Source of the DNA: an uncultured virus (IMG/VR IMGVR_UViG_3300033075_000390)
Taxonomy: Duplodnaviria > Heunggongvirae > Uroviricota > Caudoviricetes
IMG/VR virus record: IMGVR_UViG_3300033075_000390
DNA: 20,000 nt
Reading direction: 5' to 3' (one strand)
Every line of letters starts with the position of its first letter. Positions within the stretch are counted from its first letter, which is position 1. Below the pieces are notes generated by a model that saw nothing but the letters and a program-made list of their open reading frames with translations, was not told where the DNA came from and searched no databases. The position numbers and the translations under genes are program-made. Below, piece after piece: positions 1-20,000 of this stretch.

Positions 1-376
1 CCGCATGTGATTTACGAATAGTAGTTAGTTTACGAGCTTGAACTGACGCTAAACGCTCTACACCTTCTTCACCATAAGCACGTTGCCCTTGAACGTCTTG
101 TGGAGTAATGTAGTCATCAAGAGGGAAGTGCGGAATTGCGTATGAACGCATAACACGAGTACCGTCTTTAGATACGTTGTTACGTTCACCACGGACTTTA
201 TCACCAATAAGACCAATAACACGATTAGATGCTTCAAAAGTTACTGTATGTTGAGATACAGGCTCTACGTCAAAGATACCGAGTTGGTTGATTAGACCGT
301 ATTCGTTAGGAATTGATACAAGTTCTTCTGTTAGGTCGGTAACTTTAAAACCGTTACCATAATCTCGAATAATCAT
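1..376 (-). CDS. Major capsid protein, lambda gpE-like (HK97 fold); 5' part only, runs off the window
   Basis: Manual translation from ATG at 376: MIIRDYGNGFKVTDLTEELVSIPNEYGLINQLGIF...IPHFPLDDYITPQDVQGQRAYG, open to position 1. The motifs resemble the Phage_cap_E family. SD is AAGGAC; the gene follows the decoration gene. Confidence 0.88.
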   Translation of the reverse strand, partial: MIIRDYGNGFKVTDLTEELVSIPNEYGLINQLGIFDVEPVSQHTVTFEASNRVIGLIGDKVRGERNNVSKDGTRVMRSYAIPHFPLDDYITPQDVQGQRAYGEEGVERLASVQARKLTTIRKSHA

Positions 377-405
377 TCTATTTTTGTCCTTTATTATTAT
401 TATTA

Positions 406-819
406 TTAGATAGAGTCGTTAGCTAAGATTTCTTTAGTAGCTAAAGAAGCATAAGCAGCAGCAAGTTTAGTTGCATCGTTGAAAGAGCTATGTGGTTTTA
501 AACCAGTTTTACGTACAATAGTTTCACCACGTACAATAGCTAATACTTTAGTATCTGTGGTAGCAGGAACAGCAACACTTAGGTTGTGCAAGTCTTTACC
601 AACAACAACAGCTACAGGAGCTTCTGAACCATCAGTTGCAGTTTGTACAGATTCTTTATATTTACCAGTAAGAGTTACTTTACCAAGCAACATACCAAGT
701 GTAAGGGTCTTAGCAGTATCGTTAACTACAACAAGTTCACGAGTAAGGGCTAAATCTGGTTTACTTTCGTATTTTACTACATCTGAATAACGTGGGGTGT
801 CTTGTGCAATAATTGTCAT
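406..819 (-). CDS. Head decoration/stabilisation protein (lambda gpD-like)
   Basis: 137 aa with the LGMLLGKVTLTGKY...DGSEAPVAVV motif; lies between scaffold and capsid genes; SD GAGGA. Confidence 0.8.
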   Translation of the reverse strand: MTIIAQDTPRYSDVVKYESKPDLALTRELVVVNDTAKTLTLGMLLGKVTLTGKYKESVQTATDGSEAPVAVVVGKDLHNLSVAVPATTDTKVLAIVRGETIVRKTGLKPHSSFNDATKLAAAYASLATKEILANDSI

Positions 820-836
820 TTATTATAATCCTCTTA

Positions 837-1871
837 TTATGCTTTTTTAAGTAATTTATCTAGTTCAGCTTGAACAGCAGATTTAGCAACTTTAACGCCT
901 TCCTCTGGTGAACCTTTCTCTTTAAACATTTCTGATTCATCTACTTTAGCAGTAAGAGCTTTAACAACATCTACTACATCTTTAAATGCTTCAGCATCTA
1001 AGTCTTTAACAGCTTTAAATAGTTTAGCAGAAGCATCTACATCAACTACAGCAGCAACTACTTCAGCTTCACGAGCTTTCTCAACAGCTTCTTTTTCTTT
1101 AGCTTTGAATAACTCGATTTCTTCTTTAGCTTTCTGAATGTCAGCTAGAGCTTTTTGAAGTTCTACTTCTTTTGCATCATACTGAGCTTTTTCAATTGTT
1201 TCTTGTGTCATTTCATTTTCCTGTGTGTCGGCTTTAGAAGCCTTAGTTTGTTTAGGATTTACACCCTTTGTAGGCTTACCGCCACTTTCACCATCTAAGT
1301 CTTTCTTTACTTCTTGTAACTTGAAAGACTTTTCAATAAACTGTTGATCTTTTAATAGGTTTAAATATTGATCTTCTGTAAGAGAGTTAATGAAATCTGT
1401 ACTACCTTTAGCTAATGTAGCTGATTTAAGAATCTCAATACCTTGTAGTTGATCTTCAACCCATTCTTTACGATCTTGACTTGTAGGTCGAGTAATAGGA
1501 TCGCCCCAATGATCTAGATTACCTTCTTTAGATGCTTTATCACGATACCAACACCAAAAGCTTTCCTGACCGTACTCATCAGAGTCATCTTCACTTTCAA
1601 CATATCCAAACATTGTAGCTAAGACTTCTGCATCATCTCCCCAAATATGAAAGAATTTTTCTAAGAAGTCTGGAAGGGATAGTGTTACACGAATCTGTGA
1701 CGCTTTCTGAATAAACTCTGGAGATCGGTTGTCTACGGATTTCATAACTAATGTTTTATAACCTGATGCAGCACCACCTTGTGCTTTATGTACTAAAGCT
1801 AAGTGAGCACCTTCGTGTTCAAATGTAATATCTGTCAATTTTCGTTTTGCTTTAGTCACTACCTTCTCCAT
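837..1871 (-). CDS. Capsid scaffolding/head maturation protein
   Basis: 344 aa with an E/K/A-rich coiled-coil C-terminal half; lies between protease and decoration genes. Confidence 0.7.
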   Translation of the reverse strand: MEKVVTKAKRKLTDITFEHEGAHLALVHKAQGGAASGYKTLVMKSVDNRSPEFIQKASQIRVTLSLPDFLEKFFHIWGDDAEVLATMFGYVESEDDSDEYGQESFWCWYRDKASKEGNLDHWGDPITRPTSQDRKEWVEDQLQGIEILKSATLAKGSTDFINSLTEDQYLNLLKDQQFIEKSFKLQEVKKDLDGESGGKPTKGVNPKQTKASKADTQENEMTQETIEKAQYDAKEVELQKALADIQKAKEEIELFKAKEKEAVEKAREAEVVAAVVDVDASAKLFKAVKDLDAEAFKDVVDVVKALTAKVDESEMFKEKGSPEEGVKVAKSAVQAELDKLLKKA

Positions 1872-2256
1872 CTAAACTCTCTGCATCAGCCTTAGCTCCA
1901 ATACTTACACCTGTATAATTACCACTCTTAACTTCAGACCATATGTCATCGTCTATAAATTGCAAAACTGATAACCAGCTTCCAGCCTTAATGATTGTCT
2001 CACCCATTTGCATATCAACTGGCGCAATATAACTCTCAACAACAGAGAAAGCCTCTGTGTCGAAGAGATGTAAAAGGTTTGCTTTACGGCAGTAGGTGTT
2101 AAAGTTATGACAGGCTTTACGAACTTCTGTAGCATCGTAAATATCACCATGTAGATCAACTTCATCAGGAGAGAGTACAAGGAATGTTGCTTGTTTTAAT
2201 TCTTCTTGTGCTTGCTTAAAAATAGGAACATTTGATGTTCGTTTCTTAACTGGCAT
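1852..2256 (-). CDS. XkdF-like putative serine (prohead) protease
   Basis: PDEVDLHGD, ACHNF, ANLLH, VESYIAPVD, GSW and G.YTGVSIGA motifs typical of XkdF-like proteases; head-module position. Confidence 0.8.
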   Translation of the reverse strand: MPVKKRTSNVPIFKQAQEELKQATFLVLSPDEVDLHGDIYDATEVRKACHNFNTYCRKANLLHLFDTEAFSVVESYIAPVDMQMGETIIKAGSWLSVLQFIDDDIWSEVKSGNYTGVSIGAKADAESLDGEGSD

Positions 2257-2332
2257 TTAACTTACCCTTTTAATTATAGTTGTGAGTAAGCTTATATTTA
2301 TTCTGTAGCAATTCTCATTGCCTTATAGCTGT

Positions 2333-2361
2333 ATTATATAACCAAGAATTTACTTTGTAAA
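2333..2361 (-). promoter_or_regulatory. sigma70-like promoter for the head genes
   Basis: TTTACA-17 bp-TATAAT on the minus strand, about 75 nt upstream of the protease start. Confidence 0.6.
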
Positions 2362-2453
2362 TACTTTAATTAAATATATTTATAAATATAAGCTAATCTC
2401 ATTACTTGTTGTTATTGTTTAGCAAGGATAAGCTACCTTGCAATCTTGTATTG

Positions 2454-3932
2454 TTATCCAGCATTATCTAAGTTGTTGTCGTTATCATTACCTGTACCAG
2501 CTGTTCTGCGACTACCCTCTAAAGGATTATCTAACTCTTGTCCTGCTTTACTTGTATTGTCTGTCAATAACTCTGACAAATCTGCATCTTCAGGTAAAGC
2601 ATCTAAACCAAGTAGATTGAGTACACGGTTAACAACAGGAAGTGTCTTAGGTAAGATGCCAATACTCCCAACACGCTGTAAGAATTTTGATGTTTCCTCT
2701 AATGAAACAGATTCAAGGTCATCAACGGCAATGAAAGGTAATCGTGTCATCTCCCAACCGTTCATACGAGCAATTAGAGGGATGAGGTGATGATTTACTA
2801 CGTTGCAAATCTCTTTCAGTTTTGATTCAATAGCAATAGCAGATAGGCTGTTCTTAATATTACCTAATGCGTAACTACCTGTACTACCTTGCCCCATAAT
2901 TAAAAGATCAGCACTTAAAGCTGTAAGGATAGCGTTACTGTAGTATTGCTTAATGTTTGTTGTATCATAAGCTTTACCACCTTCATTCTTCAATAACTCA
3001 AACTTAAACAAAGGTTGTTTTGTTGTTTCATCGTAAGCTAGAGGTAATACCATGCCTGATTGTTGATTCTGTTGGATATTACGAACAATGTTCTTCCACT
3101 CATTGTATTGTGCTTTAGTGATTTCATCAGCATCTTCTGCCATAACTTGCGGGGGAATCCAAGCAATAGGGACTCCACTTAAATCCCTTTGTAACCCACA
3201 GTTTTCGAGTTCTTCTACAGCAGTTTTATACTTCCATGAGTAGTAACAAGCTTTAAGAGGGGAGTCACCAACAGGAGAATCTTTATTCTTACCTAAACGG
3301 AATAGCAAAAACTTCTTACGTGGGATTGTAATTTCTTCACCTTTAGATGAAAGCAATACTTGCCCACGTTTACCTGTCTTAGCTACTGTTTGAGTTAATC
3401 CAATGAGATTTTGTTCTTCATCGTAATTCCACTTAGAAATACTATCTTGAGAACGAATAGGTAATTTTCTAATACCAATCTTACCATCGTTGAACAAGCT
3501 TCCTTTGGAGTGCAATCGTTTCCGAAGTACAATCTCATTCACACAGAAACCGTACTTATTCATACTAGCAACTTCTTGAATGAAGTCTTGCCAAGATTGA
3601 CCATCCATATCTTCAAATAAGCATTCACGAATGAAGTTAGCATAAGCTTGTTGTTCTTCACTCGCTTGAGGGTGTGGTTTAACTTCAAAGTTAGCTTTAA
3701 GCATCATGTGCTCATAGTAATTCAAAGCTGAAGCTACTGTAGAATCATAACCCATTTGCTTATACGTTAAGATACTTTGAGGGAACTGCAACTCTCGTTT
3801 TAATTCTTCATTGATCTGTCCGTTGCTAACTCTTAAACCTGTATAACCTAATTGTTGGATTGTAAAGCTTAGAGATTCTTTTGATGCTTTGGTCACATCT
3901 ACAGGTGTACTAGCACCTACTGTTTCACTCAT
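2454..3932 (-). CDS. Portal protein (DUF935-like)
   Basis: 492 aa directly after TerL; portal-like motifs (KFLLFR...SPVGDSPLKACYYSW, GSYALG); SD AAGGA. Confidence 0.88.
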   Translation of the reverse strand: MSETVGASTPVDVTKASKESLSFTIQQLGYTGLRVSNGQINEELKRELQFPQSILTYKQMGYDSTVASALNYYEHMMLKANFEVKPHPQASEEQQAYANFIRECLFEDMDGQSWQDFIQEVASMNKYGFCVNEIVLRKRLHSKGSLFNDGKIGIRKLPIRSQDSISKWNYDEEQNLIGLTQTVAKTGKRGQVLLSSKGEEITIPRKKFLLFRLGKNKDSPVGDSPLKACYYSWKYKTAVEELENCGLQRDLSGVPIAWIPPQVMAEDADEITKAQYNEWKNIVRNIQQNQQSGMVLPLAYDETTKQPLFKFELLKNEGGKAYDTTNIKQYYSNAILTALSADLLIMGQGSTGSYALGNIKNSLSAIAIESKLKEICNVVNHHLIPLIARMNGWEMTRLPFIAVDDLESVSLEETSKFLQRVGSIGILPKTLPVVNRVLNLLGLDALPEDADLSELLTDNTSKAGQELDNPLEGSRRTAGTGNDNDNNLDNAG

Positions 3933-3947
3933 GTTTTATTCCTTGCA

Positions 3948-5393
3948 TTAAAAATCTCTATTGAATGGGTTAGCTTGTGTAAATGAAGTCAGGTTGAAAG
4001 AGGGCAGTACCATTTGTCTACTGATGTGATTGTATGCGTCCGATGTTGCGTCCACCTGATCGTCATGTCCTTTCCTACCACCATCGAATTGTTCTAGCTC
4101 GTTTAAGTAGCTATTATTCCATTGTTCTTCTACAGAGTATCCTTCGTCACTGACGTACTGAACATAACCTGCTTCCGCCATAGCAGCAAAAGCACCAAAA
4201 CGTAGCACCTTATTAGCTTTAGGTTTAACCAACCTTACGGTAAAACCAAACTCAGCTAATTTAGCTTGTAGTGTTTTAGCATAGCTTTGTCCACCTGCAC
4301 CTGCATCTAGTGGTAGTGTAACAATTACGTCCCTACCATCAGCAAGAGCTGTTTTAAGAATTAACTCCTCGACACCTAAGAACTTCTTACGGCAACGAAC
4401 TACATGCTCTACTGTATAAACTTTATTCTTATCTTTTGACATAAGAACCCCTGCTGTATAATCGGGGTCTCTGTATTTTTCACTTGGTTCTGATGCTGCT
4501 AAATCCCAAGCTCTTACTCTCTGTACTACGTGAATAGGAGGGTGTTTAATCATCTTAACCCAATCACGTTTAAAGTAACCTGTACCTTCTTCACGAGCTG
4601 TCCAACTACCATATAGTAATCTATCTTGTTCAACACGGGATTGTTCTTTTAACTTACCAATGTACGCTTTAGATATGTATGGGTTATCGTAGACTGTACT
4701 GCCAATAACACACATTGAAGTAATACCACTATCTTCTTCTGAACCATAAACAGCTTCAGCTTCTTCTCGTGTAGCATACCAATCTAAACTACCGTCACGT
4801 TGTTTAACAAAGTATCGTGTTACGCCACGCTTATCAGGATCAGGAATACCTGTCTCAGGGTCTAACCACCACCATACCCAATCTTTTAGGAATGAATCAC
4901 AGTGAGGGTTTGTTGCCATACATAACGAAGCTTTATGATACCTTTCAGCATCAGCGTTACGGTTACGAGAACGGAGATAAGTAATCATCTCTTCTGTAAA
5001 TTCTGTTGCTTCATCGAATGCAATGTAATCTGCTTGTAACCCTTTAAACTTCTCTTTTGCTGCTTCGTTCTCATAGTGAGAAAATTGTAATGAAGCTCCT
5101 GTTGAGAAGATTAATTTACGATCTTTAATTTTAATTTTTAAGTTAGGGTCAACCCTGCTGTATAAAGCAATAGCGTCATCCCAAAGACCACCTTGTTGTA
5201 ATAATTGTGTAGATGTCCTACGGAAGATTACACCTCTTGAATAAGGGCAACTGATATATCTTAAAAATCTTAATAGAATGGAATATGATTTACTACTACC
5301 AGCACTACCACTGGCGATAGTAATATCTGCCTCAGAGTTAATGAACAACTCTTGTGGTTTACTAGCAGGAGCAATTACGTCTCTTTCTTGCAT
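3948..5393 (-). CDS. terL: Terminase large subunit
   Basis: Walker A-like GSAGSSKS, Walker B IAFDEA, coupling motif ATNP, and nuclease motifs RAWDLA and HDDQVDA. Confidence 0.95.
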   Translation of the reverse strand: MQERDVIAPASKPQELFINSEADITIASGSAGSSKSYSILLRFLRYISCPYSRGVIFRRTSTQLLQQGGLWDDAIALYSRVDPNLKIKIKDRKLIFSTGASLQFSHYENEAAKEKFKGLQADYIAFDEATEFTEEMITYLRSRNRNADAERYHKASLCMATNPHCDSFLKDWVWWWLDPETGIPDPDKRGVTRYFVKQRDGSLDWYATREEAEAVYGSEEDSGITSMCVIGSTVYDNPYISKAYIGKLKEQSRVEQDRLLYGSWTAREEGTGYFKRDWVKMIKHPPIHVVQRVRAWDLAASEPSEKYRDPDYTAGVLMSKDKNKVYTVEHVVRCRKKFLGVEELILKTALADGRDVIVTLPLDAGAGGQSYAKTLQAKLAEFGFTVRLVKPKANKVLRFGAFAAMAEAGYVQYVSDEGYSVEEQWNNSYLNELEQFDGGRKGHDDQVDATSDAYNHISRQMVLPSFNLTSFTQANPFNRDF

Positions 5394-5421
5394 TGCTTCC
5401 CTACTTATGTTGTAGAAGGTG

Positions 5422-5775
5422 TTACCCCTCTGCTACTTTAAATGAAATAATTGGAGCTAATGGTTTATCTTCTTGATCTTCGTCATCAGATTTAGCACTA
5501 GCGTTTATAGGTTTATATAAATCATCCATCATGTCTTGATATGTTTTCATAATGAATACTGCAACTTTAACTTTAGTAGCTTCAGTTGTTTTTTCATCTT
5601 CAAGCATATCTGTAAACACTTTAAGAGCTTTATTATTTAGTGGTTTTAATCGTCTAAGGATTTGCTTAAACTCTTTTTCACGATATTCTGTTCCAGTAAG
5701 AGACTTGGGATTAACCAAGTCCTTCCCTGTACCTCGTCCTTTCGGATTACCACTTTGTCCTTTAAGAAATGGCAT
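5422..5775 (-). CDS. Probable terminase small subunit
   Basis: N-terminal F.KGQSGNPKGR motif (DUF5681-like); immediately upstream of terL; SD AGGAGG. Confidence 0.7.
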   Translation of the reverse strand: MPFLKGQSGNPKGRGTGKDLVNPKSLTGTEYREKEFKQILRRLKPLNNKALKVFTDMLEDEKTTEATKVKVAVFIMKTYQDMMDDLYKPINASAKSDDEDQEDKPLAPIISFKVAEG

Positions 5776-5788
5776 TTTGTCCTCCTAA

Positions 5789-8074
5789 TTATGCAGTTAC
5801 TGCTACAATATCAACAATTGTACTAACTTCACCGACACTTGGAAATACTAATACTTTCAGTACTGTCCCAAGACCACGATCAGCGAGTTCTTGGCTAGTG
5901 ATAGTTGCTGAATGTGTATTCGTAAACTTCGTCCATAACGAGTATACCCCTGTTTGGTTAAGTATCTGAACTTCATAGGTCGTTCCTACTACTTCATTCT
6001 CTACATTAAAATTGATAGTAATATCATAGTTAGGGTGTAGTATTGCTGTAATGTCAACAGGTTTAAGAATTGGGTCAGGTTGATACGGACTTAAGTTGTC
6101 GCCACGTATACCTTCTGGGTATGGCGTGTTACTCTGAATTGGAGCATTGTATTCCGAGTTAGAGAAGAATCCATCGTATCTACCGTCAATAGTTAGCGAG
6201 TCATACATGACTTGTGGATACGCCCATACTAACTGCTTCATCACCCCAACGTTTTCATTGTTCTTAATGTCACCAAAGATACGTCTCCATATCGGCAAAC
6301 GGTATGATTTGGTGTAGTCAAACTTATAGATATAAGCAATCGCTGCATCTGGAACAAATCCTGACAGGTATGCTACCCTGTCAGGGGGATAACCTAGCTC
6401 ACCAATTGGAATCTCGTTCACGGCTTGATGACTCAAGTCTAAACGTGGAGGTTGTTCAATGATCCAGTCATAAGCTTCGGTCATAATATAATCGAAGTTA
6501 GGATAAGCATAATGATCTTGTGGGTAGTTGATATAAGTTGCCAAGCTTTCTTGTTGTGTACGAATAGTTGGGAAGAAGATCAACGGACATACCTTAGCAC
6601 TTGACCCATATTCAGCTTTGATCATTGTACGAATATCTTGACACGTTTGCCCAAGCTTGTTACGTAACCAAGTCTTAAACGCCTGTGACGTTGAATCAGT
6701 CATATTAACTGCTTCATAGATCGTACCGAGATCAGGAGCGAATAAACCTGTGTCAGTATTGAACGCAACCTTAGTTGGGTAATCGTAAACACACGGTTTA
6801 AGGGTGTCTACATTAAACCACCACCACGGTTCACCAATCTGCATATTGACTTGACAGTTTGCAGCTACAAGAATATCAGCAAACTCCTTGTAAGCTTTAT
6901 GCAAGTAAGCAATAGCATTTGGGTTACACAAACTTGCAAAGTAACTTGGTGGTGTGTAGCCTGTGCGACCTAAGTTAGAATCCCAATCACGTTGACACCA
7001 GTCTTCACGTGCGCTCTGTGAATATAGCTCCCAACTAACAGAGAAAACAGGCTCAAAACCTTCAGATTGTAATGCGTTGGCGTAGCCTTGATGCCACTTC
7101 TTAGTTGGAACATTTACGACATCACGACCATCGATCAAAGTATCTGGAATATAGAAACGGTTGTTAGTGAAGTCCCAATCCATTACTGGGTAATGACTCA
7201 TGCCGCAATAGTGATTAATGAAGCCACTATATCCAAGTGCTTTCAAATTGTTCACGATACGTTTTGGATTCAAGTCATAGTGATCGTCATAACTTGTACA
7301 CATCCCAATATTGTGGTTTTGGATGTTCACACGATTTAATGGAAGATTCGTTGCAGATAATGCTCCAGTTAATACCATGTTGGTCACACGTACATAACCG
7401 CTTATTGTCTGTGTCAATGGAACTGCGGAACTCTCATATTCACTGACGTAACCACCCAAAAACATTTTCTCGATGTATCGGACGTTGAAGTTAGTAGTAT
7501 TATCGAACCCACCTTTCACCGTATCGAAGTCAATAACGATACGAGCATCACGACTTGCTGGAGTTGTTGTGTAGTTGAATAACGCTATATAAGCAATACC
7601 CTTACGACCTTGCTCATCTACATATTGGACAGTCAATGTTGGTGAAGCTTGTGGATCATTCAATAATGGCATAGATGGAGAAAGTGCAATATCAAATTCC
7701 CATACTAGTCCAGAGTAATCATAGTTCGTATCATACCGTAGATATTGGTGATCTTTAGTATCTTTAGAGTCCCACACAATACCAACGAAGTCTGATTTCA
7801 GTCGGCTTTCAAATGCAACCTCAAAACCATTTCCATAACTGCTGATAGAGAATGATGCAGTCTGTGGCCCGTCTACACGCCAGTATACAGGATCGAATCG
7901 TCGAATACTTGACATGTAGTAAGTCAATGGTGGGACAAGACCCCCTTTTCCATCCTCGTAAAAATCCCCGTAAAGAATGTGTCTTAGTAATCGAGTAAGT
8001 GTAGCTTCTGTGGTTGCCCCTATACCATTTTGATATGAGTATAAAGTAGTTGTTTTATTTTGAGCGTCTATCAT
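5789..8074 (-). CDS. Large virion protein resembling the non-contractile tail sheath / DUF2460-associated TIM-barrel family (candidate receptor-binding protein)
   Basis: Motifs RRFDPVYW, YDDHYDLNPKRI...GYSGFINHYCGMSHY and MQIGEPWWW, recalled from that family; C-terminal beta-rich Ig/FN3-like segment. Confidence 0.6.
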   Translation of the reverse strand: MIDAQNKTTTLYSYQNGIGATTEATLTRLLRHILYGDFYEDGKGGLVPPLTYYMSSIRRFDPVYWRVDGPQTASFSISSYGNGFEVAFESRLKSDFVGIVWDSKDTKDHQYLRYDTNYDYSGLVWEFDIALSPSMPLLNDPQASPTLTVQYVDEQGRKGIAYIALFNYTTTPASRDARIVIDFDTVKGGFDNTTNFNVRYIEKMFLGGYVSEYESSAVPLTQTISGYVRVTNMVLTGALSATNLPLNRVNIQNHNIGMCTSYDDHYDLNPKRIVNNLKALGYSGFINHYCGMSHYPVMDWDFTNNRFYIPDTLIDGRDVVNVPTKKWHQGYANALQSEGFEPVFSVSWELYSQSAREDWCQRDWDSNLGRTGYTPPSYFASLCNPNAIAYLHKAYKEFADILVAANCQVNMQIGEPWWWFNVDTLKPCVYDYPTKVAFNTDTGLFAPDLGTIYEAVNMTDSTSQAFKTWLRNKLGQTCQDIRTMIKAEYGSSAKVCPLIFFPTIRTQQESLATYINYPQDHYAYPNFDYIMTEAYDWIIEQPPRLDLSHQAVNEIPIGELGYPPDRVAYLSGFVPDAAIAYIYKFDYTKSYRLPIWRRIFGDIKNNENVGVMKQLVWAYPQVMYDSLTIDGRYDGFFSNSEYNAPIQSNTPYPEGIRGDNLSPYQPDPILKPVDITAILHPNYDITINFNVENEVVGTTYEVQILNQTGVYSLWTKFTNTHSATITSQELADRGLGTVLKVLVFPSVGEVSTIVDIVAVTA

Positions 8075-8092
8075 TTTTACCTCACAAAGAGA

Positions 8093-8350: not shown

Positions 8351-8437
8351 GTTTTATCCTTTTAATTCATTTGTTATTGAAATCTTACTAAGTAACTTCC
8401 TTGTACATTTAAATATTCTGATAGATGATGATCTAGT

Positions 8438-10268: not shown

Positions 10269-10275
10269 AACTTAA

Positions 10276-10728: not shown

Positions 10729-10737
10729 ATTTTATCC

Positions 10738-11324: not shown

Positions 11325-11344
11325 GTATTATCCTTTATCGTTAT

Positions 11345-11676: not shown

Positions 11677-11685
11677 ACTTGGAAA

Positions 11686-11907: not shown

Positions 11908-11927
11908 AGATAATTCCTAATTATTAT

Positions 11928-12560
11928 AATTTTATTGATGAAATGAACTTCGTTAAAAGAACCTTTACTGTGGTGTGAGGTATCTTATCGTTTTCCTACC
12001 ACATACTAATAATGCTTATTCACTTCTCAATAAAATTGCTAGTCTTTCCTAGCTGTCAACTTACCTAGTGCATTTCCAATCACGTTATGGAGGAGCTAGG
12101 TGGTGTAGTATTTCTACTAGACCTTTAAAAGTAACTCGTGCGTCAGTACGTGACAACCGATACACTAACCGAAGTATTAGTTGACCTTTGTGTACGGTGG
12201 AAGGTCATAACACCTGTAAGCAATGTAGCCTAACTCAACGCTGTAATATTTCATTTAAAAGGTTATTTTGATTACTTCTAAATGCACTACTAAGGTTCGC
12301 CACCCTACACCAACTTTTCAATCCACATTTTACTATCTAAACACGTTCTTCTCTGTACAAAACGCTAGAGTTGTAGTTTAGTATGAAGGTAGTGGGACAC
12401 CTATTCTATGAAACTGAGGGTGGTATTTTTGTTAAGGTGAATACCGCCAAAACACCTATTTAAGTAACCAAACAGTTTGAGTATCTACCGAAGTATCTAC
12501 CGAAGTATCTAGGCTTGTTTGGTGTTCTTTTTAGCCTAGCCCGTAGCCTTCGCTACCCTA
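11928..12560 (-). ncRNA. Candidate large structured non-coding RNA
   Basis: Many long-range helices (11, 10, 9 of 10, 8 and 7 bp), GAAA and cUUCGg loops on the minus strand, an H-type pseudoknot, and no ORF of 60 aa or more. Confidence 0.6.
12480..12511. repeat. 12-nt tandem repeat (AGTATCTACCGA, about 2.6 copies)
   Basis: Directly visible; each full unit forms a UAC-UUCG-GUA mini-hairpin on the minus strand. Confidence 0.85.
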
Positions 12561-12615
12561 AACCAATTCCGTCTTTCATAATCTTACTCCATTCATTTAA
12601 TATTTGGGTCCTCTA

Positions 12616-13149
12616 TCAAACTTCAACGTAGCGTTCAAACCTAATAATCTTCATTATTGTTGAGTGCGGTATATTAAACATTCTTGATAGAGACCTAGCT
12701 CCAAAATTTCTATCTCCATATTTAAAGTTATTCCTAATATATTTGACATCTTCTTCTGTCAACTTTCTGTTCTCTTTAGAAATCAGTTTTAAATGATCAA
12801 GACTAAGGAGACCAGTTTCAATAGCGTGAACAACGTTTCCTTGAGGAGTAACCCATTCCAAATTATCAACACTGTTGTTAAGTTTGTCTCCATCAATGTG
12901 ATTTACGAAAGGCAATTCATCAGGGTTTGGTATAAAAGCTTTAGCAACCTCTCTATGAATCTTCAACACAAGATTACTTCCTTTTCTACCATTAAGTTTG
13001 GTTACACACGCATTATAACCTTCACCAACAATATTTTGTTTTAATATCTTATTTGTTCTCAAAGAGAACAGTCTTCCCTTGTTGGATACAGAGAATAAAT
13101 CTTCATAACCAACAACACCTTTCCAAACTTCATTTTCAGCGTCTACCAT
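12616..13149 (-). CDS. NUMOD4-HNH homing endonuclease
   Basis: NUMOD4 motif EVWKGVVGYEDLFSVSNKGR; HNH motif VNHIDGDKLNNSVDNLEWVT; C-terminal HTH-like region. Confidence 0.92.
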   Translation of the reverse strand: MVDAENEVWKGVVGYEDLFSVSNKGRLFSLRTNKILKQNIVGEGYNACVTKLNGRKGSNLVLKIHREVAKAFIPNPDELPFVNHIDGDKLNNSVDNLEWVTPQGNVVHAIETGLLSLDHLKLISKENRKLTEEDVKYIRNNFKYGDRNFGARSLSRMFNIPHSTIMKIIRFERYVEV

Positions 13150-13197
13150 ATTCGCTCCTATGGTTGTTAATATTGATGAAACATCCTAGAGCGAATA
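13149..13197 (-). promoter_or_regulatory. Hairpin sequestering the RBS of the HNH gene
   Basis: TATTCGCTC (13197-13189) is perfectly complementary to GAGCGAATA (13157-13149), which covers part of the AGGAG SD and the A of ATG. Confidence 0.7.
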
Positions 13198-13258
13198 GGG
13201 TGCTTCTCGATACTAACTTGGACTCGTGTGGTGCAAAATAACCTCCTAAGTGAGTAAT

Positions 13259-13331
13259 CTCTGCGTATAGGATTCGAACCTATCTGTAGACGGTGTAGAA
13301 AACCGTTGCATATCCTATCTGCCAACGCAGA
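13259..13331 (-). tRNA. tRNA-Arg (anticodon UCU); CCA not encoded
   Basis: Acceptor stem TCTGCGT/ACGCAGA plus discriminator G; anticodon arm ACGGT-TTTCTAC-ACCGT; T arm ATAGG-TTCGAAT-CCTAT. Confidence 0.9.
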
Positions 13332-13567
13332 AGTTACTTACCTAAAGACTCGTGAGGGGAGTAAGGACAATAACAGTTCCGCTTACGATTATGCGGACTA
13401 CCTAGCAATCATACCAAAGTAAGGAGATGAACTTCAATACGAACGAGTAGCGACCTAGGAGATTTGTAGTGTGGAGTTGACTCTCCACAGATAGCAAGGA
13501 AGTTAGGAGAACTTCGATCTACCGCCTTAACCAACACAAAAAGTAATGCATGTTTTCTTGTGGGTAT
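13332..13567 (-). ncRNA. Candidate sRNA/tRNA leader with anti-Shine-Dalgarno loops
   Basis: Lies between the promoter and the tRNA. Hairpins GAAGTT-CTCCT-AACTTC, GTATTGAAGT-TCATCTCCTT-ACTTTGGTAT, TGTGGAG/CTCCACA and CCGC/GCGG. Confidence 0.55.
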
Positions 13568-13573: not shown

Positions 13574-13601
13574 ATTTTAACACATATTCTTCCAGTGTCA
13601 A
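13574..13601 (-). promoter_or_regulatory. sigma70-like promoter driving the leader/tRNA/ncRNA transcript
   Basis: TTGACA-16 bp-TAAAAT with an extended -10 TG. Confidence 0.7.
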
Positions 13602-14235: not shown

Positions 14236-14264
14236 TTGACGTATTGAATTTGGTGCTGTAAAAT
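14236..14264 (+). promoter_or_regulatory. sigma70-like promoter for the rightward genes
   Basis: TTGACG-17 bp-TAAAAT. Confidence 0.7.
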
Positions 14265-14337: not shown

Positions 14338-14880
14338 GTGTTAAATGATAAAACCTTGAGAAAGTTGTGGCACAAAATGTTTGAACGGTCTTACAACAAA
14401 AAGAGCCTTGAAAATAACCCAACATATACGGGTTGTTCTGTATCGTTGAACTTTTCCGATTACCAATATTTCAAAGATTGGTGCGTTAATCAAACTGGAT
14501 TCAACTCAGTAGATTTAAGAGGAAATGTCTTTCAATTAGATAAAGACATTTTAGTGAAAGGCAATAAAGTTTATAGTGAGGATACTTGTTGTTTTGTACC
14601 AAAAGAGATAAATGGTTTTTATACCAAAGCTAATAAGATCAGAGGTTTGTTTGCAATAGGTGTCTATTTCGATAAGAGATCACAAAAATTCATAGCAGGA
14701 TTATCTATCGAAGGTAAATATAAAATACTCGGTCAATACGACAACGAGTGGAGCGCTTTCCTTGCTTACAAACAAGCTAAAGAGAATCGTGCTAAAGAGT
14801 TAGCAGAGAAATGGCGTGGACAGATTGATAATCGTGTCTATGAAAAATTAATCAATTACAAAGTTCTTCTTACAGACTAA
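14338..14880 (+). CDS. HNH-like/AP2-domain homing endonuclease family protein
   Basis: LDKDILVKGNKVYSEDTCCFVPKEIN followed by an AP2-like region GVYF...LGQY...AFLAYK; GTG start with SD GAGGAG. Confidence 0.75.
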   Translation: MLNDKTLRKLWHKMFERSYNKKSLENNPTYTGCSVSLNFSDYQYFKDWCVNQTGFNSVDLRGNVFQLDKDILVKGNKVYSEDTCCFVPKEINGFYTKANKIRGLFAIGVYFDKRSQKFIAGLSIEGKYKILGQYDNEWSAFLAYKQAKENRAKELAEKWRGQIDNRVYEKLINYKVLLTD

Positions 14881-14919
14881 GAAGATTACAGATTAATTAA
14901 CAAAAGAGGAAAATTAAAT

Positions 14920-15276
14920 ATGTCTACAGAGTTTAACCACGATGGAAGTATTACCGTAATCGGATACAGCCTACCTGAGTTCTGTTTTGAACTGTGTGAG
15001 TTAGCAGCAAAAGGGTTTGTTGTAACAATGGAAGGAAACAAAGCACCTAGCGGAGGGTTTGGAAGTTACTACTCAGCAATTATAGTACCACGTCACCACT
15101 ATCGAATTGATTTACAAGGCAACCACTTAAACGTACCTAAGACAGAAGAGACACAACCTGAAGTTGAAGTGAAGTTACATACTGAAGAGCCTAAACAAGA
15201 TGTTGATAGTGTACCAACTACGCAGAATGAAAAGGGGCAACCAAAAACACGTACTCAAACTAAGAAAACAATTTAG
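14920..15276 (+). CDS. Hypothetical protein
   Basis: 118-aa ORF with SD GAGGA. Confidence 0.75.
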   Translation: MSTEFNHDGSITVIGYSLPEFCFELCELAAKGFVVTMEGNKAPSGGFGSYYSAIIVPRHHYRIDLQGNHLNVPKTEETQPEVEVKLHTEEPKQDVDSVPTTQNEKGQPKTRTQTKKTI

Positions 15277-15284
15277 AGGTGAAT

Positions 15285-15503
15285 ATGACAGAGCGTGACG
15301 TTGAAGATAGTAGCTTCTCATCTGTGTCTCTTAAAAACTTTAAGAGGAAAGAAACTGACGAGAATGGTGTTATTACCGTTAAGAGCAGTTCGGTTAAACT
15401 AGAAGCAACAATCAATGAACAAGATAGTGTTGAGCAGATCACACAAGTTCTTGATGCTGTGCAAGATTGGTTGAACTCAGTTAAAGCTTCTTTACAAACC
15501 TAA
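15285..15503 (+). CDS. Hypothetical protein
   Basis: ORF; the ATG at 15285 follows SD GAGGT. Confidence 0.65.
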   Translation: MTERDVEDSSFSSVSLKNFKRKETDENGVITVKSSSVKLEATINEQDSVEQITQVLDAVQDWLNSVKASLQT

Positions 15504-15627
15504 GAAAACAACTTAATAAAATATTAACACACCTATTGCTAATCGTATTTAGGTGTGTTACTTTATAAACACAAAGTTGTATTACGAACAATTTAATTAT
15601 TTTAACAAGGTGGTTAGGAGATGTAGA

Positions 15628-16437
15628 ATGAGTAAACGCAGACAGCAACATAAGCAACCAAAAGCCTACTATAGTCAAGGTCAAGCTGTTGGTGATAAAC
15701 ACGATCAACGTAAGCAACGAGGCGAGTCACAAGTAATTTCAGAACGTGTTGTGTGCAATGAAGAATACGATCTTAGTTGGTTCAAACCATCTGTTGCACA
15801 AAAGAGTATTATTTATGGCATGTCCAATCACCGTTGTACTATTGTTTCATCTCCGTCAGGATGTGGTAAGTCATCTACTATCGTGTTCCAAGCTTTGAAA
15901 ATGATGAAAACAGGTAAGTTTGATCAGATTCTTTTCATTAAAACACCAAGCACTTTAGGTATTGATGATTTAGGTGCTTTGTCAACAAACGAAGTTAAAT
16001 TCGATGTTCACTTAGAAGCAATGCGAAGTATTTTTCAATCTTTCATGTCTAAAGAAAAGCTTGAGATGGAAGAGCGACTAGGGCGAATCGAGTTCAAATT
16101 TCCAAATTGGTGTGGTGGCGAAACTTGGGACAGTAAAATCATCATAATTGATGAAAACCAATGGATGACCCCAGAAATTAATAAACTTGTATTGGAGCGA
16201 ATTACTGATAACAGTGTTGTTGTGGTAGCTGGTGATGCTAAACAGCGTTACTCAACAAAATGGCGTAAAGATGGTTTTAGTGACCTGATTGAGCGTGTCA
16301 CAGAGTTAGACGAAGATGGTGTTCGTGTATCCAATAATGAGTTGTTCCACTATGTTCGTTTAGAGCATTCTGAAAACCGAAGAGGAGATTTCTCTCGATT
16401 CATTACCGAAAATTATGATAAATTAAATATGAGTTAA
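15628..16437 (+). CDS. phoH: PhoH-like ATPase
   Basis: Walker A SPSGCGKS, IIIDENQ, AGDAKQ and the terminal RG motif. The true start is probably ATG 15628 (SD AGGAG), not 15553. Confidence 0.85.
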   Translation: MSKRRQQHKQPKAYYSQGQAVGDKHDQRKQRGESQVISERVVCNEEYDLSWFKPSVAQKSIIYGMSNHRCTIVSSPSGCGKSSTIVFQALKMMKTGKFDQILFIKTPSTLGIDDLGALSTNEVKFDVHLEAMRSIFQSFMSKEKLEMEERLGRIEFKFPNWCGGETWDSKIIIIDENQWMTPEINKLVLERITDNSVVVVAGDAKQRYSTKWRKDGFSDLIERVTELDEDGVRVSNNELFHYVRLEHSENRRGDFSRFITENYDKLNMS

Positions 16438-16450
16438 AAGGAGATATAAA

Positions 16451-16681
16451 ATGATTAATCAGCAACAATTAGTTGACGTGCTTTGTTCTTTAATAGAAGA
16501 TGACTTTAAGCAAGTTGATGAAGTTATTAAACAACTTCATAATATGTTTGATGATAAAAGTTTAAGTGAAACTATAAAAAATAAAGTTGGTGTCGAGAAG
16601 ATGCAAACTTTAGCAGAGTTAGTTGATGGTAAGTATGATGAAGAAGTAACGATGGCGGTGTTAGTGTCTAAATTTAAATAA
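16451..16681 (+). CDS. Hypothetical protein
   Basis: 76-aa ORF with SD AAGGAG. Confidence 0.75.
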   Translation: MINQQQLVDVLCSLIEDDFKQVDEVIKQLHNMFDDKSLSETIKNKVGVEKMQTLAELVDGKYDEEVTMAVLVSKFK

Positions 16682-16691
16682 GGAGAAATAA

Positions 16692-17369
16692 ATGAAACGA
16701 AAGATGAATAATGAAGACGTATTCGATCTACTACAATCGTCTGAACAGTTAGACTACAGTTTGAGTAGTATTACTCACAATAAGTTTGAATTTAACTTAG
16801 ATGAAGATATTAAAGAACCTAGCTATTATCGGAATTTGATTGAGGTGTTAAATAACGCAACGGAGCAAGATTTAGTTGTGTTAAATATCAACTCAGGAGG
16901 TGGTCATTTAGATAGTGCAATTTCTATTATTGATGCTTTGCGGAATACACGAGCTAACACATTAGCTTGGATTTCAGGTAGCGCTTATTCTGCTGCTGGA
17001 ATCATTGCGCTAAGTTGCAGTAATTTAGAGGTTGGTGAGTTTGCAACTCTCATGTGCCATAATTCGCAATACGGTTTAGGGGGTTACACTACAGACATTA
17101 AAGATCGTGCTGTATTTGAACATAAGATGATTTCTAAAATCATGCACAGTGTTTATAAGCACTTCCTTTCCGTAGATGAAGTAGAAGCTGTACTGTCTAA
17201 TAAAACAATATGGATGGATGCTGATGAAATCGTAGAACGCTTCACTAAGATGCAAGAAAAATTACAGGAAGAGTTTGAAGCTGAATTAGAAGCTTTCCAA
17301 AAGGAACAAGAAGATACTCTTGAAGGAGCTTACGCCAAACCTAAGAAAAAGAAGATTCTTCCATCTTAA
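16692..17369 (+). CDS. ClpP-like serine protease
   Basis: INSGGG, AYSAAG (catalytic Ser), LMCH (His) and WMDADE motifs. Confidence 0.85.
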   Translation: MKRKMNNEDVFDLLQSSEQLDYSLSSITHNKFEFNLDEDIKEPSYYRNLIEVLNNATEQDLVVLNINSGGGHLDSAISIIDALRNTRANTLAWISGSAYSAAGIIALSCSNLEVGEFATLMCHNSQYGLGGYTTDIKDRAVFEHKMISKIMHSVYKHFLSVDEVEAVLSNKTIWMDADEIVERFTKMQEKLQEEFEAELEAFQKEQEDTLEGAYAKPKKKKILPS

Positions 17370-17379
17370 TTAATATTGG

Positions 17380-17409
17380 TTGACACACAAGGATAAGGTG
17401 ACGTATGAT
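17380..17409 (+). promoter_or_regulatory. sigma70-like promoter overlapping the terminator
   Basis: TTGACA-18 bp-TATGAT. Confidence 0.5.
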
Positions 17410-17428
17410 TGCCTTATCCTATTTTTAT
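17390..17428 (+). terminator. Intrinsic terminator-like hairpin after the ClpP-like gene
   Basis: AGGATAAGGT/GCCTTATCCT stem followed by ATTTTTAT. Confidence 0.65.
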
Positions 17429-17447
17429 GTTTAAAGGAAATTAAAGA

Positions 17448-17618
17448 ATGCTAGATTATATACTACGTTTTATATTAACACTACTAATTATTGCAGGAAT
17501 TGCTTTCCTAATACCTACACTTGTGATATTCTTTTTACAAGTATTGATTACGGTTAGTGTATTCTTAGTAATATTGTTTGTTTTAAGCTTATTTTATAAA
17601 GGAGATAAAGATGTCTAA
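17448..17618 (+). CDS. Small membrane protein (56 aa, two TM segments); not in the ORF track
   Basis: MLDYILRFILTLLIIAGIAFLIPTLVIFFLQVLITVSVFLVILFVLSLFYKGDKDV; SD AAGGA; overlaps the next start. Confidence 0.65.
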   Translation: MLDYILRFILTLLIIAGIAFLIPTLVIFFLQVLITVSVFLVILFVLSLFYKGDKDV

Positions 17619-17907
17619 AGTTTACAGTTTTGAAGATTGTCAACCAGTAATCAAAGAAGCTTTTAAGAAAGCAATTGATCATTTAAAAGAAACTCTTGGT
17701 GAGCAATATTCAATGAATGCAACTAAGTTTGCTTGGGGTAAGTTTCAGGATTATGCTGAACAAGATATTGAGTTTATGATGGTTTGCGACCTTTGTGGTA
17801 AAGCTGATGGTGAGTGCGAGTTCACAGAAGTGATGGTTAATTCGCAAGATTTAATTAATATCTGCTATGACTGCCATGAAAAGTCAGATGTGAGTGATGA
17901 GCAATGA
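17611..17907 (+). CDS. Hypothetical protein with a C-terminal CxxC...CxxC
   Basis: 98 aa; SD AAGGAG. Confidence 0.75.
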   Translation: MSKVYSFEDCQPVIKEAFKKAIDHLKETLGEQYSMNATKFAWGKFQDYAEQDIEFMMVCDLCGKADGECEFTEVMVNSQDLINICYDCHEKSDVSDEQ

Positions 17908-18038
17908 TACTTAAATTCCTTAAACAATTATTCTGCTTTCATCACTACATTTACCGATGTTGGAATAGCACTCACGAATATGTAGAAGTTTGTAAGAAGT
18001 GCGATAAAGTACGTGTGATCAAAGTAAGATTTGGTTAA
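17904..18038 (+). CDS. Small Cys/His protein (DUF1660-like, 44 aa); not in the ORF track
   Basis: MILKFLKQLFCFHHY...CKKCDKVR; ATGA overlap with the upstream stop. Confidence 0.65.
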   Translation: MILKFLKQLFCFHHYIYRCWNSTHEYVEVCKKCDKVRVIKVRFG

Positions 18039-18058
18039 ATAAATTAAGGAGATATTAC

Positions 18059-18316
18059 ATGAAAGAACACAACAAACTAAGTGAAGAAGAGATTGTTAAA
18101 TTAAAGAATACTCTCTTACAATTAAACGGAGCTTTATTACGATTAGGTATAAATAAGGAAGATACACATATTGTATTACCTAAATCCGATTGGGTGTATT
18201 TTAACAATGTTCTTAGTTCAGGACAAAGTAGTATGAGTAAGTATTACCAAAGTGTAAGTGATAAGCAGTTTAGTTTGAGTGGTGTTAGTATAACTTATGG
18301 AGTTAAGGAGAAATAA
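18059..18316 (+). CDS. Hypothetical protein
   Basis: 85 aa; SD AAGGAG. Confidence 0.75.
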   Translation: MKEHNKLSEEEIVKLKNTLLQLNGALLRLGINKEDTHIVLPKSDWVYFNNVLSSGQSSMSKYYQSVSDKQFSLSGVSITYGVKEK

Positions 18317-18415
18317 ATGGCAACACAACAACAATTAGACAAAGTTTATATGCAAAATGCTGTAAATATGGCTACATTATCTCACGCTATACGAAAGAAA
18401 GTTAGGTGTATATGA
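18317..18415 (+). pseudogene. Truncated N-terminal fragment of a dCMP deaminase (32 aa)
   Basis: MATQQQLDKVYMQNAVNMATLSHAIRKKVRCI* aligns without gaps to YDIAYLKMAEAFSETSVANRLKVGCV of 19251-19667; has its own SD AAGGAG. Confidence 0.75.
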
Positions 18416-18468
18416 ACTACATTGGTATGTTAGGTAAACATGTTGAAAAGTTGTCTGAGGAGAAATAA

Positions 18469-19239
18469 ATGAATAATTCCGAAAAACATAATAAAAGTAG
18501 AGAACTGTACGAGTTCAGTGAATTTAAAACTAACACCTCTGGTTACTGTACTGTGATTGAGTACAACAACTTTAACGATGTGGTAGTCAAGTTTAGCAAT
18601 ACAGGGAGCAGTGTTAGAACAAGTATATGTAAACTAAAACAAGGAAAAGTTAAAGACTACTCTGCTCCAAGCGTATACGGAGTTGGGGTGTTAGGTAAAG
18701 ATTTTAAAAGGGGGCACAAGGATGATAAAACCTATCAGTTATGGGTAGATATGTTGGAGAGATGCTATAGTGAAAAACTCCATAAGAAACACCCTACATA
18801 CCAAACATGTAAAGTTTCCGACAATTTTAAAGAATATGAGTATTTCACAAAATGGTGTCATTCCCAAATAGGATTTAATAATGACACTTGGACTTTAGAT
18901 AAAGACATCTTAATAAAAGGCAACAAAGTGTACTCTGAAGGTACATGTTGTTTTATTCCTCAAGAGGTAAATAAAGTTCTAGTTAAATCTGATAAAATCA
19001 GAGGAGATAACCTTATTGGAGTATATTATTGTAAACGAAAAAGAAAATACAGGGCAACATTATCTGTATCTGGAAAGACGACTAGCTTAGGTCATTACAA
19101 CACAGAGCTTGAAGCTTTCATTGCGTATAAGGATGGAAAAGAGGAACATATTAAGTCTTTAGCTAAGAAATGGAAAGACCAAATTGACCCTAGAGTTTAT
19201 GATGCTTTAATGAATTGGACAATTGAGATTACTGATTAG
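18469..19239 (+). CDS. HNH-like/AP2-domain homing endonuclease
   Basis: LDKDILIKGNKVYSEGTCCFIPQEVN plus an AP2-like C-terminus; paralog of 14338-14880 with an extra N-terminal domain. Confidence 0.8.
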   Translation: MNNSEKHNKSRELYEFSEFKTNTSGYCTVIEYNNFNDVVVKFSNTGSSVRTSICKLKQGKVKDYSAPSVYGVGVLGKDFKRGHKDDKTYQLWVDMLERCYSEKLHKKHPTYQTCKVSDNFKEYEYFTKWCHSQIGFNNDTWTLDKDILIKGNKVYSEGTCCFIPQEVNKVLVKSDKIRGDNLIGVYYCKRKRKYRATLSVSGKTTSLGHYNTELEAFIAYKDGKEEHIKSLAKKWKDQIDPRVYDALMNWTIEITD

Positions 19240-19250
19240 GAGATAATAGA

Positions 19251-19667
19251 TTGAATAAGTACGATATTGCTTATTTAAAGATGGCAGAAGCGTTCTCTGA
19301 AACATCAGTAGCTAACAGGTTGAAAGTAGGTTGTGTTATTGTTCGAGATGGACAACCTATTTCACTTGGTATCAATGGAACAGTTGCAGGGTGGTACACA
19401 AACTCTTGTGAAGATTCAAATGGAGATACTCAGTGGTTTACAAAACACGCAGAGGTGCAAGCCCTTAATAAACTGCGTAAGAGTACAGAAAGTAGTGTTG
19501 GCGCAGATTTGTTCGTGACGCACTCACCTTGCAAGATGTGCTGTTTAGACATTATTGATGCTGGTATTAAGAGAGTGATATATAAACACGACTACAGGGA
19601 GCAATCAGGGTTAGATGTTCTAAGACAGCATGGAATTATTGTTGAAAAACTCATTGACAATGGTTAA
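19251..19667 (+). CDS. dCMP deaminase
   Basis: KVGCVIV, HAE and SPCKMC zinc-binding motifs; TTG start with SD AGGAG. Confidence 0.92.
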   Translation: MNKYDIAYLKMAEAFSETSVANRLKVGCVIVRDGQPISLGINGTVAGWYTNSCEDSNGDTQWFTKHAEVQALNKLRKSTESSVGADLFVTHSPCKMCCLDIIDAGIKRVIYKHDYREQSGLDVLRQHGIIVEKLIDNG

Positions 19668-19713
19668 TCTGTTATGGTAAGTTTAGAGAACAAATTAATT
19701 AAGGAGATTTACT

Positions 19714-20000
19714 ATGAAACTTAAAAACAAACTACTATCCATAGGTGCAATTCTACTACTCTCTTGTCAATATTCACCTGCACAAGCAAAGGTTGTGGAT
19801 AATTCATTAAACCCTACAGGTTTAGAATTAACCCTTTGTGAGAGTATTGCTGAGTTTGCAGAAGATGTATCTAACCTACGTCAGAATGGTGCAAAATATG
19901 CAGATGTTATTGCTGTAGCACCTAAACCTACAACACAAGATGAGAAAGATATTAAACTTATCTTAGATGAAATTACTTATACTGCTTGGCAATTAAATAT
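19714..20000 (+). CDS. Exported/periplasmic hypothetical protein; runs off the window
   Basis: MKLKNKLLSIGAILLLSCQYSPAQA-K... signal peptide-like N-terminus; SD AAGGAG; open to the window end. Confidence 0.7.
   Translation, partial: MKLKNKLLSIGAILLLSCQYSPAQAKVVDNSLNPTGLELTLCESIAEFAEDVSNLRQNGAKYADVIAVAPKPTTQDEKDIKLILDEITYTAWQLN

Follow-up and report, generated by a model that had tools for sequence, protein, structure and literature searches.

Shine-Dalgarno sequences divide by gene module in a lineage of uncultured tailed phages and may be read by a conserved RNA with exposed UCUCCU motifs

The window analysed here is a 20-kb stretch of DNA that forms part of an uncultured tailed phage (IMG/VR record IMGVR_UViG_3300033075_000390) and carries two divergent gene blocks that differ in the Shine-Dalgarno (SD) sequences preceding their genes. 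The leftward block (2..13149, - strand) has late-type head, terminase and tail-fibre-like content: it encodes the N-terminus of the major head protein, a decoration protein, a protease, the portal protein and the large terminase, and it also contains a terS-like gene, tail-fibre-like genes, small open reading frames (ORFs) and an inserted HNH gene. The rightward block (14338..20000, + strand) is non-late, i.e. of early or middle type, and encodes two HNH proteins, a PhoH-like protein, a Clp-protease-like protein, a dCMP deaminase and small ORFs. A tRNA-Arg(UCU) gene and an AT-rich divergent control region separate the two blocks, and a conserved structured RNA with three exposed UCUCCU motifs is predicted at the head of the late block.

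A sequence-only reading of the window had counted the hexamer AGGAGA ahead of nine of the 14 rightward starts and ahead of none of the 16 leftward starts, and both counts are borne out. The nine sites, all on the + strand, lie 5-7 nt before their start codons (ATG in eight cases, TTG in one), and the ORFs behind them range from 32 to 269 aa, with one exiting the window. They precede the genes for the PhoH-like protein (15616..15621, 6 nt before ATG 15628; 269 aa), a 76-aa protein (16439..16444, 6 nt before ATG 16451), the Clp-protease-like protein (16681..16686, 5 nt before ATG 16692; 225 aa), proteins of 98 aa (17600..17605, 5 nt before ATG 17611) and 85 aa (18047..18052, 6 nt before ATG 18059), a doubtful gene of only 32 aa (18306..18311, 5 nt before ATG 18317), an HNH endonuclease (18458..18463, 5 nt before ATG 18469; 256 aa), the dCMP deaminase (19238..19243, 7 nt before TTG 19251; 138 aa) and the ORF that leaves the window (19702..19707, 6 nt before ATG 19714). 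At the leftward starts, the SDs are AAGGAC, AGAGGAT, AAGGGT, AAGGAA, GGGAAG, GTGAGGT, AAGGAT and TAGGAA, and the nearest exception in the late block is the AGGAGG (5781..5786, - strand) of the terS-like gene with its ATG at 5775. In total, AGGAGA occurs 17 times on the + strand of the window and once on the - strand, where it lies at 11043, 55 nt from the next start. The difference between 9/14 and 0/16 has a hypergeometric p of about 1.4e-4, and a purpose-written gene caller, which misses small ORFs, gives 7/11 rightward versus 0/14 leftward (p=0.0007).

Related contigs of ~80 kb are present in IMG/VR; 24 loci were matched, these loci are mosaics, and the relatives differ by 20-30% in DNA. 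Genome-wide counts were taken from four whole relatives (G002, G003, G005 and G006) and not from the genome of the window itself, to which the closest record is an 11.7-kb fragment (G001). In the gene caller used, ORFs were scored by codon log-likelihood and starts were picked by a generic SD score without preference for the AGGAGA core, while the label "late" was assigned from head, tail and lysis gene content. In G006, a Pfam scan at 1e-4, which covered 128 of the 131 called proteins and skipped three that cross piece boundaries, places the portal, capsid, decoration protein, tail tube, tape measure, holin and amidase in a single 24-kb block. That the late and other blocks correspond to temporal classes is inferred from this gene content.

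Each whole relative has four or five strand blocks, and this is where the claim of a strand-specific code fails. In the late blocks, AGGAGA precedes 0/8 and 0/15 genes in G002, 1/26 in G003, 2/33 in G005 and 0/28 in G006, whereas in the larger non-late blocks, which occupy both strands, it precedes 31-57% of the genes; the exception is the 7-gene non-late block that ends G006, in which no gene has it. Thus, the motif tracks gene modules and not strands, and its apparent strand specificity was an artefact of the 20-kb view. The bias itself holds genome-wide and in each genome (late versus other, 0/23 versus 37/94, 1/26 versus 33/103, 2/33 versus 43/107 and 0/28 versus 48/103; p from 0.002 to 4e-7), the same split is present in further fragments of relatives, and the four genomes pooled give 3/110 late genes versus 161/407 others (p=7e-17). 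Among related words, AGGAG (8/110 versus 224/407) and GGAG (21/110 versus 266/407) follow the same direction, while AGGA[ACU] (48/110 versus 70/407) and GAGG (44/110 versus 95/407) are more frequent in late genes.

Two trivial sources of this split were considered and rejected. SD-guided picking of starts is not its cause, as three start definitions agree: the called starts, the starts of the longest ORFs (3/110 late versus 124/407 other) and an annotation-free count of AGGAGA-N4-8-ATG, which occurs 0-1 times per genome in the late block versus 40-48 times elsewhere. Nor does tight gene packing force weak SDs on late genes, as the split is seen both among genes with a spacer of at least 15 nt to the upstream gene (2/75 versus 74/190) and among genes with tight starts (1/35 versus 87/217).

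Based on these data, the phages of this lineage have a two-class translation-initiation code that follows the gene programme. The first class, class E, has the consensus U-A-A-G-G-A-G-A-(U/A)-(A/U) followed by A-rich, C-poor sequence and precedes most genes for replication, nucleotide metabolism and homing endonucleases as well as most small genes of unknown function. Downstream of GGAG in this class, the next base is A in 68% and then A or U, with C at most 8%. The second class, class L, is (G/A)AGGAA, is found on head, tail and lysis genes (top hexamers GAGGAA, AGGAAA, AAGGAA and UAGAGG) and forms one G-C pair fewer with the 16S tail. The classes differ chiefly at the position after AGGA, which is G in 225/297 class E sites and A in 36/56 late genes (p=0.001 versus background). 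The base after AGGAG in class E is A in 161/225 and G in only 14/225 cases, and this A, the last base of AGGAGA, has no partner in the canonical 16S tail. Both classes are predicted to pair with ACCUCCUUA, a canonical 16S tail that may differ from that of the host, with a median of -6.0 kcal/mol for late genes versus -7.4 kcal/mol for the others. Late SDs are, therefore, weak but present: 88% are at or below -4 kcal/mol, and only 6% are at or below -8 kcal/mol versus 47% of the others. The spacing to the start peaks at 6-8 nt, and the upstream base composition is alike in both classes.

The class difference extends into coding sequence. When words were scored against synonymous-codon shuffles, in an exploratory analysis uncorrected for the number of motifs, the weaker SD-like words were equally depleted in both classes (observed/expected in late versus other genes, AGGA 0.62 versus 0.63; AGGAT 0.48 versus 0.45; AAGGA 0.44 versus 0.51). 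By contrast, AGGAGA (0.45, z=-2.7, versus 1.15), GGAGA (0.64 versus 1.21) and GGAG (0.62 versus 0.90) are depleted in late genes and not in the others, and for GGAG this is still seen once occurrences that precede a start codon are left out (0.67 versus 0.87). CUCC has the opposite distribution (1.19 in late versus 0.67 in other genes, with z=-5.1 in class E genes), as expected if a class E SD is easily masked by CUCC. UCUCCU is enriched in late coding sequence, with 26 occurrences observed and 16 expected.

The conserved RNA upstream of the late block is non-coding and ~197 nt long (13371..13567, - strand) and is predicted to fold into five hairpins. A sigma70-like promoter with 11/12 matches (TTGACA-16-TG-n-TAAAAT, 13574..13601, - strand) reads into it, and the tRNA-Arg(UCU) gene (13258..13332) lies directly 3' of it on the same strand. 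UCUCCU motif 1 (13505..13510) is in the loop of a hairpin with a covarying stem, motif 2 (13457..13462) in a single-stranded linker and motif 3, CAUCUCCUUAC (13422..13427), in a 10-nt hairpin loop; around motif 3, AUCUCCUU is invariant among all aligned homologues. The RNA and the -35 and -10 elements of its promoter are conserved in the relatives, in which seven distinct homologues were compared. The three UCUCCU motifs are its most conserved parts, with one relative having ACUCCU as motif 1. In the RNAalifold structure, 24 of the 40 predicted pairs show compensatory changes, and motifs 1 and 3 fall in loops and motif 2 in a linker. The computed probabilities of being unpaired, the mean of which is 0.39-0.47, amount to 0.53-1.0 (motif 1), 0.54-0.92 (motif 2) and 0.89-1.0 (motif 3). 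In all four whole relatives, the RNA is located at the upstream (5') edge of the late block and on its strand, although in G003 this placement holds only across the contig ends and assumes a permuted or terminally repeated genome. Alignment and fold together argue that the RNA is a real conserved structured element with exposed UCUCCU motifs.

A covariance model of the 3' half of the RNA matches every relative and two more divergent contigs (55 and 47 bits), and an exact pattern for this half finds 10 stretches on nine contigs in IMG/VR, all of this clade. In two relatives, a tRNA gene lies between the second hairpin and motif 2 (L017, 4221-4533; L019, 1315-1596), and one contig has a second copy of the 3' half in which motif 3 is kept and motif 2 is lost (L068, about 9993-10762); the architecture of the RNA is modular. 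At gathering score, no Rfam 15 family matches the RNA in the window, and a search of 11300-14400 at E<=1 returns the tRNA and two chance-level matches elsewhere and no family for the RNA. Short ORFs behind the three + strand AGGAGA sequences at 13422-13510 were considered and rejected, as there is either no ORF or one of at most seven codons. Six RNA-labelled wastewater libraries contain 23-36% of the sampled words, and contigs of four such libraries span both gene classes; DNA carry-over is a possible source, and such contigs are no proof of transcripts. One 197-nt contig (run X13, record 11) covers 13370-13565, which coincides with the bounds predicted for the RNA. This is at most a hint, and we do not count it, as the ends of a contig do not reveal those of an RNA and are expected anyway at the edges of a conserved island.

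To place the split among other phages, the same pipeline was applied to T4, Felix O1, Acinetobacter phage Herod and Limnohabitans phage DC31, and the statement that the split is unusual rests on these four. In T4, strand marks gene class, and GGAG precedes 9/43 genes on the late strand versus 34/216 of the rest, i.e. there is no split. The same is true of Felix O1 (9/37 late versus 26/77 other) and Herod (24/40 versus 66/114), in both of which the late block was confirmed via the positions of the terminase and portal homologues. In the Herod module homologous to the terminase/portal module, AGGAG is found at 19/40 late genes. DC31 is the closest cultured relative, with a terminase that is 48% identical and the same gene order, and it has a weak split for GGAG (6/33 late versus 38/86 other, p=0.01), while that for AGGAGA (2/33 versus 11/86) is not significant. 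It also has a weak match to the covariance model at the equivalent place (29 bits, E about 2e-4), which appears to be a divergent, degenerate RNA with one loop, ACUCCUU, the sole CUCCU of that region. The Herod and Felix O1 genomes have no match to the covariance model. Thus, the phages compared line up as the sequence-only reading had anticipated for relatives without the RNA: Herod and Felix O1 have neither a match to the RNA model nor a split, T4 has no split, and DC31 has a one-loop RNA and a weak split. The general premise of that reading, namely that virion genes would normally be expected to have the stronger SDs, holds only loosely; late SDs are slightly stronger in Herod, equal in T4 and slightly weaker in Felix O1.

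Several other features of the window deserve mention. A sigma70-like promoter-like site (TTGACG-17-TAAAAT, 14236..14264, + strand) lies ahead of the rightward block, and the stretch at 13850-14060, between both divergent promoter-like sites, is very AT-rich with many short repeats of the GTATA/TATAT type and may be a regulatory or origin region. In the leftward block, two long ORF-free stretches (11325-11685 and 11908-12615) lie between the first gene for a tail-fibre-assembly-like protein and the HNH gene. Within them are a 12-nt sequence repeated in tandem (near 12487-12512) and a hairpin that resembles a terminator (12053-12038); 11359-11688 is ~80% conserved in two relatives, and the true late promoter or another RNA may be located here. 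Three HNH homing-endonuclease genes lie within 7 kb (12616-13149, - strand; 14338-14880 and 18469-19239, + strand), and both rightward ones match the same PHROG family, phrog_953. The leftward one has AGGAGC (13154..13159, - strand; ATG 13149) as its SD, which had been described as hidden in a hairpin. Within 13110-13215 (- strand), this SD, AGGAGCGAAUA, has a complement of ~10 nt that lies 35 nt upstream and pairs with it in the minimum-energy fold, but 11 of 200 shuffled sequences fold as well; the pairing resembles the way in which homing-endonuclease genes of T-even phages are translationally masked. The alignment of the large terminase gene to three relatives (L007, L008 and L009) breaks at 4046-4059, where the relatives have ~850 extra bases between the two halves, which suggests that their terminase genes carry a mobile insertion, an intron or a homing-endonuclease cassette, that the window is without. 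A megablast of the window against cultured phages returned only a tRNA match and a short tail-fibre match, and the PhoH-like protein, used as a query for further loci, found only three close relatives.

How might such a code be read? We suggest, tentatively and at somewhat less than an even chance, that it is read by the RNA as an anti-SD RNA and acts as a switch from early to late genes. In this model, the split would let a single phage factor silence class E sites and spare class L sites; with class E silenced, ribosomes would become available to the late sites, which are intrinsically weaker. The foremost candidate for this factor is the conserved ~200-nt RNA, the three exposed UCUCCU motifs of which are complementary to AGGAGA; motif 3, AUCUCCUUA, would pair with nine nt of the class E consensus, UAAGGAGAU. 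The model supposes a transcribed, stable and abundant RNA whose binding to class E sites shuts them off. Duplexes with the RNA loops are predicted to be stronger for class E sites (median -9.7 kcal/mol) than for late sites (-6.3 kcal/mol). The arrangement would also be a sensible one because late sites are weaker, do not contain the silencer's word and would lose out unless class E sites are silenced. Put as a scenario, to which we give slightly less weight than to the switch as such, this is a lytic lineage with two translational dialects, in which the three-loop RNA accumulates and titrates all AAGGAGA-type sites so that ribosomes go to late messages; perhaps, the RNA may titrate strong host sites also. 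The earlier suggestion that an anti-SD RNA shuts off non-virion genes is partly supported: it gains from the genome-wide counts and from the comparison with other phages, which both went in the predicted direction, and from the conservation of an RNA with exposed UCUCCU motifs, and it loses from the restriction of this RNA to one lineage and from its ordinary sigma70 promoter.

These last two points belong to a larger set of observations that weigh against reading the code in this way. All RNA-bearing genomes are of one lineage, and the association of RNA and split, therefore, amounts to about one evolutionary event, while the phages compared that are without the RNA are only distantly related and infect other hosts. 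The promoter of the RNA has the same kind of sigma70 consensus as the divergent early block, and late timing is not evident from it; as the RNA would be made alongside its supposed targets, the switch needs the RNA to outlast them, which is assumed here. Moreover, sites that pair well with the RNA also pair well with 16S RNA, leaving one or two extra pairs for discrimination. At the SDs themselves, G follows AGGA in 8/56 late genes compared to a background of 20.6% (p=0.16); the SDs of virion genes thus show a preference for A at this position and no significant avoidance of G, while AGGAGA is depleted inside late coding sequence. GGAG is retained by 21/110 late genes, including the capsid (cGGAGAaa), tail-tube (uGGAGu), scaffold-like and terS-like genes. 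An A after AGGAG is also common in T4 (17/28) and Felix O1 (9/15) and, thus, needs no RNA as an explanation. The depletion of GGAG within late coding sequence is not obviously explained by an RNA that blocks initiation. Finally, a structured RNA behind the promoter of a long operon could have another job, e.g. in antitermination or in the processing of the tRNA precursor.

The same data bear on explanations that do without the RNA. The likeliest of them, to which we give somewhat less weight than to the RNA model, is that initiation strength is tuned without any trans-acting factor. In that case, only strong sites would allow early and middle genes to hold their own against host mRNA and to be expressed from few templates, moderate sites would suit the abundant late mRNAs, and the RNA would do something unrelated. 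That 88% of late SDs reach -4 kcal/mol and are thus workable, that G after AGGA is not significantly avoided at them, that DC31 has a milder version of the split and that the late genes expected to be the most highly expressed (capsid, tube and scaffold-like) are among those that retain GGAG all speak for tuning, and the last is what a gradient of strength predicts. However, the AGGAGA split is near all-or-none (3% versus 40%) rather than graded, it is absent in T4, Felix O1 and Herod, for which the general problem is no different, and a depletion of GGAG(A) in late coding sequence only, with weaker words equal between the classes, is not predicted by tuning. Descent offers another account, in which the late and other modules came from ancestors with different SD habits and have kept them. 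The mosaic nature of the loci and the confinement of the strong split to one clade, for which a single origin suffices, fit with this. Nevertheless, we regard it as rather improbable, as class E is common to three or four separate non-late blocks on both strands, the SD type does not travel with the module in Herod, whose homologous modules use AGGAG freely, and the split has been maintained across relatives that differ by 20-30% in DNA.

A protein reader is a further candidate. According to reports on T4, the endoribonuclease RegB together with ribosomal protein S1 inactivates early mRNAs at GGAG followed by A-rich sequence, which frees the translation apparatus, and GGAA is a poor target of RegB (PMC1702504, PMC3014915). 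A non-homologous RegB-like enzyme could, by analogy, cut the GGAG(A) sites of early mRNAs while late mRNAs without the word escape. The class E consensus GGAG-A-(U/A)-(A/U)-(A/U)-A-A-A, which is nearly free of C, resembles the RegB/S1 site GGAGRAYARAA as given there, and GGAA, favoured by late genes (36/56), is reportedly poorly cut (PMC1702504, PMC3014915); the depletion of GGAG inside late coding sequence also fits a nuclease better than it fits a blocking RNA. Even so, we consider such an enzyme improbable. The RegB family PF10715 is found at E<=1 in none of five relatives, four of which are at least 99% complete, while the T4 control scores 1.1e-69, and the Pfam scan of G006 at 1e-4 names no ribonuclease among the 128 of 131 proteins covered. 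Moreover, the capsid and tube genes retain GGAGA or GGAGU followed by A-rich sequence, and T4, the model for this logic, is itself without a class split of SD types. Lastly, chance, base composition or start calling would be a concern given that the motif was picked after looking and that the window alone has only 30 starts; an artefact is, nonetheless, very improbable, as the split recurs in each of four other genomes (with p between 0.002 and 4e-7), is seen with three start definitions and similar upstream base composition in the two classes, and is not seen by the identical pipeline in three control phages.

Returning to the RNA as the reader of the code, the proposed design has parts in common with known systems. 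As in the T4 RegB/S1 system, the SDs of most non-late genes contain GGAG followed by A/U-rich, C-poor sequence (266/407 versus 21/110 in late genes), and the late preference for GGAA matches the target logic of RegB. Unlike in T4, the candidate reader is an RNA and not a protein, 0/5 relatives have a RegB homologue, a PHROGs search of the 29 ORFs of the window finds no RegB, and the phage family has a class split of SDs where T4 has none by the same count. In alpha-proteobacteria, the small RNAs alpha-r14/NfeR1 are described as having three identical and redundant anti-SD motifs in unpaired regions that occlude ribosome-binding sites (PMC10746234). The phage RNA is similar to these in its repeated, identical and unpaired anti-SD motifs on differing stems, two of them in loops and one in a linker. 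It differs from them in its motif, which is UCUCCU and not CCUCCUCCC, in matching no Rfam family, and in being phage-encoded and presumably co-transcribed with a tRNA, with a whole class of the phage's own genes as presumed targets. In low-GC Gram-positive bacteria, RsaE/RoxS, LhrC and RNAIII use C-rich or UCCC seeds in hairpin loops to pair with SDs; unlike the phage RNA, with which they have no sequence in common, these bacterial RNAs act on a few specific targets. Finally, the tRNA cluster of T4 encodes small stable RNAs, species 1 and 2, which, like the RNA described here, are non-tRNA RNAs co-transcribed with phage tRNA genes; they are not known to have anti-SD motifs.

Temporal control in phages is mostly explained by transcription, and the only textbook example of control over a whole gene class at the ribosome-binding site is RegB of T4. 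A literature search, with most subscription journals outside its scope, found no class-specific SD code in phages beyond the work on RegB and no phage anti-SD RNA that acts on the phage's own early genes. The division of the genes into two initiation classes is much sharper in this lineage than in T4, and the class-specific SD code is a robust fact even if the RNA is unrelated to it; as such, it is relevant to gene-finders and to expression models of phage genomes. If the RNA does read this code, it would represent a new class-wide RNA mechanism of translational switching, in which an RNA does globally what the RegB nuclease does in T4. The code would then also provide a simple sequence rule by which the genes of uncultured phages could be sorted into temporal classes, and synthetic biology would gain a compact means of switching gene sets.

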